From a virus (lineage: Duplodnaviria > Heunggongvirae > Uroviricota > Caudoviricetes), in the IMG/VR virus record IMGVR_UViG_2645727901_000003, positions 1-38,370 of that record: DNA of 38,370 nt, one strand, 5' to 3'. Positions 12,536 to 12,552 of this stretch are shown here, piece by piece (within the stretch, counting starts at the first letter, position 1; each line of letters starts with the position of its first letter). The notes beneath the pieces are model-generated. The model did not search any database and was not told the origin of the DNA. It saw nothing but the letters and a program-made list of their open reading frames with translations. A program made the translations under genes and the position numbers.

Positions 12536-12552
12536 ATGTATATATATACAGT
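12536..12552. promoter_or_regulatory. Weak LexA-box-like sequence / (TA)n tract
   Basis: ATGTATATATATACAGT: TGT-N8-ACAG, lacking the C of CTGT; upstream of BRO-family genes. Confidence 0.25.

Follow-up and report, generated by a model that had tools for sequence, protein, structure and literature searches.

A probable LexA operator with one altered half-site upstream of the antirepressor gene of an epsilon15-like prophage

Can a LexA box that lacks the first C of one of its arms still place a prophage gene under SOS control and, if so, which gene does it control? The question is raised by a short TA-rich site, ATGTATATATATACAGT, at positions 12536–12552 of a 38,370-nt stretch of tailed-phage DNA (IMG/VR record IMGVR_UViG_2645727901_000003, positions 1 to 38,370), here called the window. 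A reading made from the sequence alone had described the site as a possible second, degenerate SOS box upstream of BRO-family genes, with TGT-N8-ACAG spacing but lacking the conserved C of CTGT, and as simply a (TA)n tract. The DNA does read as described at 12536–12552, with a single mismatch to CTGT-N8-ACAG, an A for the first C. The suggestion of an SOS box also holds up, since positional orthology, the retained TGT-N8-ACAGT and a score within the range of E. coli operators make the site very probably a LexA operator. The implied decay and the assignment to BRO genes do not: the arm that lacks the C is found unchanged in many relatives, and the gene behind the site encodes a small antirepressor.

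The site and the gene behind it

The full 20-mer, ATATGTATATATATACAGTG (12534–12553), agrees with the 20-bp LexA consensus TACTGTATATATATACAGTA at 16 of 20 positions. The right ACAG lies at the spacing expected for CTG and CAG motifs 10 bp apart, and the left motif reads ATGT, which leaves the pair incomplete. The site was scored with a Lewis-type heterology index (HI), for which the matrix was made from 30 E. coli LexA sites; dinG and the three recN boxes among them were confirmed in NC_000913.3. The index came to 7.6 on the plus strand, 9.0 on the minus strand and 8.0 when the matrix was symmetrised. This score, which the sequence-only reading had named as a check, thus falls at 7.6–8.0 inside the range of the 30 reference operators (1.9–11.4, median 6.8), which are also the source of the matrix. 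Only the perfect box at 35379–35398 scores better in the window, and the third-best site reaches 12.8.

Any site scoring as well was present in 8 of 300 dinucleotide-preserving shuffles of the window and in 21 of 20,000 shuffles of the 195-nt intergenic region, which puts the full 20-mer above chance. The loose pattern alone, CTGT-N8-ACAG with one mismatch, is not above chance, with 13 matches observed in the window and 14 expected. The site is also one of only two (TA)n or (AT)n tracts in the window with at least four repeats.

Table 1. Features of the window discussed in the text
Feature	Position	Strand	Basis or remarks
Tailspike gene	9666–12377	-	Gene order, SPC32H synteny
Intergenic region holding the variant box	12378–12572		195 nt
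Tailspike promoter-like site TTCATA-17-TAGAAT, divergent from ant	12426–12454	-	Promoter scan; hexamers in conserved blocks
Putative Rep repressor operator ATTACC-N5-GGTAAT, between tailspike and ant promoters	12481–12497	.	Palindrome recurrence
Putative -35 of ant promoter, TGGTGA (TGGATA or TGGAAA in relatives)	12510–12515	+	Conservation
Putative extended -10 of ant promoter, TG-A-TATATG (canonical TG-n-TACTGT)	12530–12538	+	Conservation; overlaps left LexA arm
Putative variant LexA operator	12534–12553	.	Left arm ATGT for CTGT; spacer and right arm perfect consensus
Ribosome-binding site GGAG of ant	12561–12564	+	Sequence; ATGGAGA block conserved in relatives
ant, 86-aa antirepressor, SPC32H Ant orthologue	12573–12833	+	PDB 5D50, tblastn, phrog_450
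Rep-type operator ATTACCTTTACGGTAAA abutting isrK promoter (TTTACA-17-CATAGT with TG)	12864–12909	+	Motif and promoter scans
isrK-type small RNA	12916–12990	+	Rfam RF01394, 76.1 bits, E 1e-14
isrK intrinsic terminator	12971–12990	+	Terminator scan
C4-type antisense RNA	13015–13100	+	Rfam RF01695, 77.1 bits, E 1.5e-13
BRO-N antirepressor-like gene	13149–13838	+	Pfam Bro-N, E 1.8e-20; several "anti-repressor" PHROG families
85-aa ORF, phrog_2100	35104–35361	-	35379–35398 box 17 nt upstream
Canonical LexA box TACTGTATAAATACACAGTA	35379–35398	.	Sole exact CTGT-N8-ACAG in the window; HI 1.4

The window is an epsilon15/phiV10-like (Uetakevirus) prophage. Contrary to the assignment to BRO-family genes, the next gene after the box is one for an 86-aa antirepressor of the SPC32H type, whose ATG lies 19 nt beyond the end of the box, and the BRO-N gene follows 600 nt further on. 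The 86-aa product matches PDB 5D50 chain E, "Anti-repressor protein", over all 86 residues (E 5.4e-45), and tblastn gives 81% identity with the ant product of SPC32H; 5D50 is the SPC32H Ant–Rep complex. As in SPC32H, the gene is divergent from the tailspike gene and lies inside the virion gene block. The window contains, in other words, an orthologue of the Ant of the SPC32H-type LexA–Ant–Rep system, and the gene controlled by the box would be this small ant, not the BRO gene. NCBIfam gave no match for Ant, for the BRO protein or for the 85-aa protein encoded near the right end of the window. According to a review (PMC7380047, citing Kim and Ryu 2013), the Ant of SPC32H is produced upon LexA self-cleavage and inhibits the phage repressor, as in the Gifsy phages.

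The ant region had no near-identical match among 5,426 complete E. coli genomes, so the window does not come from E. coli. Matches in genome contigs were confined to Citrobacter and Scandinavium (74–81%), and on that basis Citrobacter is the best guess for the host.

Two alleles of the probable operator and a putative ant promoter

Comparison with related phages gives the strongest evidence, in that the site lines up base for base with a conserved LexA box. Positional alignment places TACTGT-N8-ACAGT at the corresponding site in SPC32H, epsilon15, phiV10, ZX5, Tyrion, BUCT554 and Citrobacter prophages, in each case about 20 nt before the ATG of ant. Loci were pooled from protein homology, an exact-protein look-up and two DNA pattern scans of IMG/VR, and they fall into two classes. 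Among the matches listed, the canonical class, TGn-TAC-TGT-N8-ACAGT, comprises at least 82 distinct upstream sequences and the variant class, TGn-TATA-TGT-N8-ACAGT, which includes the window lineage, at least 51; these counts are lower bounds and not frequencies. No third allele state was seen upstream of Ant homologues among the matches listed. The mean HI is 2.1 for the canonical ant boxes, which score among the strongest reference operators, and 7.5 for the variant boxes.

Within the variant class (at least 51 sequences listed), TGnTATATGTATATnnATACAGT is invariant while most other upstream positions are not conserved, and the Ant proteins are, by inspection, visibly diverged from that of the window. 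Of the site itself, TGT and ATACAGT are fixed and spacer positions 5–6 alone vary. The canonical class (at least 82 listed) shows the same pattern, and fixed arms around a free central spacer are to be expected of a LexA motif. The N8 spacing is also kept up to the right arm, ACAGT, which has no evident promoter role. Such conservation across relatives contradicts the view that the site is simply a (TA)n tract. Nor does "degenerate", in the sense of decay, suit the TATATGT arm, a discrete allele that is invariant in many diverged lineages. The variant would instead be a conserved allele of the SPC32H-type ant operator.

In all 10 genomes read that encode an identical Ant, the box is identical too, although the flanks vary and the tailspikes differ. 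The exact Ant protein is indexed in 607 blocks of the protein collection, which suggests that stable lysogens with the variant box are common. All four Klebsiella phages that matched the region in the phage collection have the variant box, among them vB_KpnP_BUCT711, which was isolated from sewage as a phage, and all six Escherichia, Salmonella and Enterobacter phages inspected have the canonical one.

The perfect consensus spacer, ATATATAT, was found in 34 of 42 variant and 1 of 71 canonical sequences among the matches listed, which are not phylogenetically independent; counted on unique boxes, the association between spacer and arm was not significant (p = 0.2). The distribution fits a consensus spacer that compensates for the weak arm. 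Klebsiella phage ST512-KPC3phi13.3 has a canonical box elsewhere in addition to its variant ant box, the same combination as in the window. Since the two forms occur together in one genome, the variant is not an adaptation to another LexA specificity.

The left arm of the box may have a second role. The box ends so close to the ATG that a promoter of ant can only lie across it or further upstream. A consensus promoter scan of the window and of the canonical relative ZX5 reported none for ant in either. Comparison of the relatives reveals a CTGG(A/T)nA block that is present in both allele classes at a fixed distance of 17 nt before TGn-TA. In this second element, TG and TA are invariant and n takes all four bases in at least 133 distinct upstream sequences listed. 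The promoter inferred from these blocks agrees poorly with the consensus, at 3 of 6 positions in the -35 and 4 of 6 in the -10, which has G as its last base. The -10 and the left LexA half-site thereby appear to coincide, and the change from TAC to TATA would alter both and shift the operator by 1 bp. As the same change alters the putative -10, the left arm could owe its conservation to promoter function instead of LexA binding.

The tailspike gene may have its own promoter, divergent from that of ant, since both hexamers of the promoter-like site lie in blocks conserved across all relatives. Two other registers for a LexA site in this region were considered and rejected. A pairing of the CTG at 12529–12531 with CAG across N17 has the wrong spacing, and the upstream block GCTGGATAG would, as a further LexA half-site, need a right arm at a place where the relatives show no conservation in an alignment judged by eye.

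Proposed operator function and competing readings

The reading that we consider likely is that 12534–12553 functions as a LexA operator, binds with intermediate affinity and overlaps the putative ant promoter. In a lysogen, a host LexA dimer would sit on the 20-mer, covering the extended -10 and the likely transcription start, so that RNA polymerase would be excluded and no 86-aa Ant made. DNA damage would then lead to RecA-stimulated cleavage of LexA and free the promoter. The Ant produced would inactivate the Rep repressor by protein–protein binding, as solved for SPC32H, and the prophage would be induced. With CTG changed to ATG in one arm, the box is predicted to bind LexA with intermediate affinity (HI about 8; canonical boxes, about 2). 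Derepression of ant would then need less DNA damage, or come sooner, than in the canonical relatives or at the strong-box gene at 35379. Culyba et al. found with an isogenic set of promoters that the rate of LexA–operator dissociation set both the threshold and the timing of induction (PMC5999292).

The main argument against LexA binding here is the absence of the left CTG. According to the same source, operators need two conserved CTG motifs ten base pairs apart for specific binding (PMC5999292). The rule is not absolute, since two proven operators of E. coli K-12, dinG (TATTGG...ACAGTA) and recN box 3 (TAATGG...ACAGGA), lack the C of one CTG (NC_000913.3). Like the window site, they have another base for this C (T in dinG, A in recN box 3) and an intact second half-site. 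Unlike the window site, they belong to chromosomal repair genes and also have G for T (TTGG, ATGG). Because the window site keeps its TGT and has a consensus spacer, it should bind LexA better than either. The dinG promoter is LexA-regulated with a low activation threshold and behaves as an early SOS promoter (PMC5999292).

If the two-CTG rule did hold here, the site would be a relic that LexA does not bind at cellular concentrations, and TGnTATATGT would be kept as a -10 promoter element only. Silence of ant would then be due to the Rep-type operator 35 bp upstream or to a weak promoter, and the SOS input would lie elsewhere, for instance at the 35379 box. Besides the loss of a CTG deemed essential (PMC5999292), this account can draw on the fact that the TAC to TATA change falls on the putative -10 hexamer, that the Rep-type operator is only 13 nt upstream of the putative -35 and that the prophage has a second, perfect LexA box. 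It does not explain why ACAGT and the exact N8, neither of them needed for a -10, are invariant in at least 51 diverged sequences listed while the central spacer alone varies. The HI lies close to the median for proven operators, the same C is missing from the functional dinG and recN box 3, and a Rep that was the sole repressor of ant would leave Ant, its own inactivator, without an independent trigger. We consider such a relic unlikely.

A different regulator, from the phage or the host, might instead bind TGTATAT..ATACA or the TATATGT arm, in which case the alleles would represent two regulatory regimes. The two alleles are indeed discrete, with no intermediates among the matches listed, and the consensus of the -35 region is CTGGAAA or CTGGTGA in the variant class as against GCTGGATAG in the canonical class. 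Yet no candidate regulator was found, one lineage (L137, L156 and L201) joins the variant arm to a canonical-type upstream block, 15 of 16 core positions are those of the LexA palindrome, and the Ant proteins of the two classes are clearly orthologous, all of which makes this explanation improbable. Least credible of all is a functionless (TA)n tract that arose by chance in an AT-rich intergenic region. The site does contain (TA)5, and the loose one-mismatch pattern occurs at chance level. The rarity of the full-site score in the intergenic shuffles, the positional orthology to canonical boxes and the invariance across lineages that differ at most flanking positions speak against it, and the comparative data effectively refute it.

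The reading as a LexA operator can be extended, more tentatively, to a selected difference in threshold. It is possible, although less likely than not, that the TATATGT arm was selected as an ant operator allele in its own right, is fixed in Klebsiella- and Citrobacter-type epsilon15-like prophages and confers a lower SOS threshold or higher spontaneous induction. The TAC to TATA change would rewrite the -10, weaken one LexA half-site and displace the operator from its place in the promoter by 1 bp. Combined with the near-obligatory consensus spacer, it would set a threshold below that of the Escherichia and Salmonella relatives. If so, discrete operator alleles tune the induction thresholds of natural prophages, and searches limited to CTGT-N8-ACAG miss a whole class of SOS-inducible prophages.

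The prophage belongs to a group whose induction proceeds by way of LexA, Ant and Rep without repressor cleavage, and the ant operator would therefore be the place where DNA damage is read. Searches for CTGT-N8-ACAG would wrongly score prophages of the variant class as being without SOS control of ant. The allele that lacks one CTG is common in the Klebsiella phages checked and in apparent Citrobacter prophages. The induction threshold may therefore differ systematically between host groups, which bears on how quinolones and other DNA-damaging antibiotics induce prophages in clinical Klebsiella.

Neighbouring elements and related systems

The BRO gene is not a direct target of the variant box, as it has its own promoter, repressor-type operator and C4 RNA. 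Both RNAs of the module score above the Rfam gathering threshold, the protein has a Bro-N domain and there is a promoter-like site of its own. Of the segment at 12864–12909, the operator takes up 12864–12880 and the promoter-like site 12881–12909, which ends 7 nt before the 5' end of isrK; this layout is conserved in phiV10, ZX5, Tyrion and the window lineage. The BRO cassette is absent from about half of the genomes that have an identical Ant and box. At its C-terminal end, the BRO protein has 80 Ant-like residues, with residues 148–222 matching the Ant of 5D50 (E 5.7e-16), and this domain represents a second copy of the antirepressor domain under different regulation. A cascade is plausible in which LexA would repress ant, Ant would inactivate Rep, and Rep would repress the isrK promoter. 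In the isrK-orf45-anrP module of Gifsy-1, the isrK promoter drives the antirepressor gene and a small RNA gates translation (PMC4825925).

The palindrome ATTACC-N5-GGTAAT occurs in exact form at 12481, 31291 and 35046 and with one mismatch at 12864. With up to two mismatches, there are 8 copies in the window against 1.0 expected. In SPC32H there are eight exact copies, of which four flank rep, and the epsilon15 record annotates the same 17-mer as "repressor / lysogeny". The copy at 12481–12497 is conserved in all relatives aligned. Since the palindrome clusters around rep in SPC32H, it is probably the Rep operator. Rep-type palindromes lie at 12481–12497, 12864–12880, 31291–31307 and 35028–35062, including positions against the -35 of the isrK promoter and upstream of the small terminase gene, which suggests that Rep may also control late and accessory promoters. 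No rep homologue was found within the window by tblastn; by synteny with SPC32H, rep and the immunity region should lie beyond its right end.

The sequence-only reading had supposed that, if the site were functional, both antirepressor-like units of the prophage would be LexA-controlled. This is unproven, as the perfect box fronts an uncharacterised 85-aa phrog_2100 gene. The 85-aa protein had no match in Pfam, NCBIfam or the PDB, and its gene sits just upstream of the small terminase gene. A strong LexA box lies within 100 nt upstream of phrog_2100 homologues at 38 of 48 IMG/VR loci, and members with such a box also occur in SSU5, in a P22-like phage and in a Klebsiella Uetakevirus-like phage. 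The homologue of a P2-like phage comes after dinI, a position that it shares with the antirepressor genes of the Gifsy phages. The family looks like an uncharacterised group of phage genes in the LexA regulon, and from these sequence contexts it could possibly encode a small antirepressor. The idea that the variant box goes together with a LexA-boxed phrog_2100 gene, as compensation or cofactor, was discarded, since the gene accompanies boxes of either class and several variant-class contigs lack it. Just upstream of the phrog_2100 LexA box, a palindrome, GTGACATGTCAC, is found at 35428–35441, and the same 12-mer recurs at 32607–32618. It likewise precedes the phrog_2100 box in Klebsiella phage ST512-KPC3phi13.3 (locus L336, about 520–535).

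At the other end of the window, positions 1–6243, to the left of the prophage integrase gene (6243–7433), are not phage DNA. A traJ-II RNA is found there at 1365–1463 on the minus strand (Rfam, 83.5 bits), along with an ORF for an AlpA-like small regulator and a 285-aa ORF that is ATPase- or replication-like by eye. The segment resembles an integrative or plasmid-derived island beside the prophage end.

The LexA–Ant–Rep system is already known, and the operator allele represents a modest new variant of it. SPC32H shares with the window the Uetakevirus type, the tailspike–ant position, a LexA-type box about 20 nt before ant and the upstream Rep-type operator. In SPC32H, however, the box is canonical, TACTGTATGTTTATACAGTG, whereas the window has TATA-TGT, with the C replaced and one extra base, and a perfect (TA) spacer. 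The predicted affinity of the window box is lower by about 5–6 HI units. The isrK–C4–BRO module downstream of ant is present in the window and absent from SPC32H.

The control of ant follows the same logic as that of the antirepressor genes of the Gifsy phages (GfoA, GftA and GfhA), 186 (Tum) and N15 (AntC). In these, an uncleaved repressor is inactivated by a small antirepressor, the gene for which lies outside the immunity region and is directly repressed by LexA (PMC3121763). The Gifsy genes differ in being part of a dinI-antirepressor-irsA operon with canonical boxes. The module at 12864–13838 keeps the order of Gifsy-1 isrK-orf45-anrP and of P1/P7 immI c4-ant, namely isrK with its leaky-terminator architecture, C4 and a BRO-type gene (PMC4825925). 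Unlike in Gifsy-1 and P1, the module of the window comes directly after a putatively LexA-controlled ant, and its BRO protein has an SPC32H-Ant-like C-terminal domain. The short-tailed temperate phage P22 likewise has an antirepressor gene next to its tailspike gene, in the immI region (mnt-arc-ant). The antirepressors of P22 and the window are unrelated, however, the gene orientation differs, and P22 ant is controlled by Mnt and Arc, not by LexA (PMC7380047).
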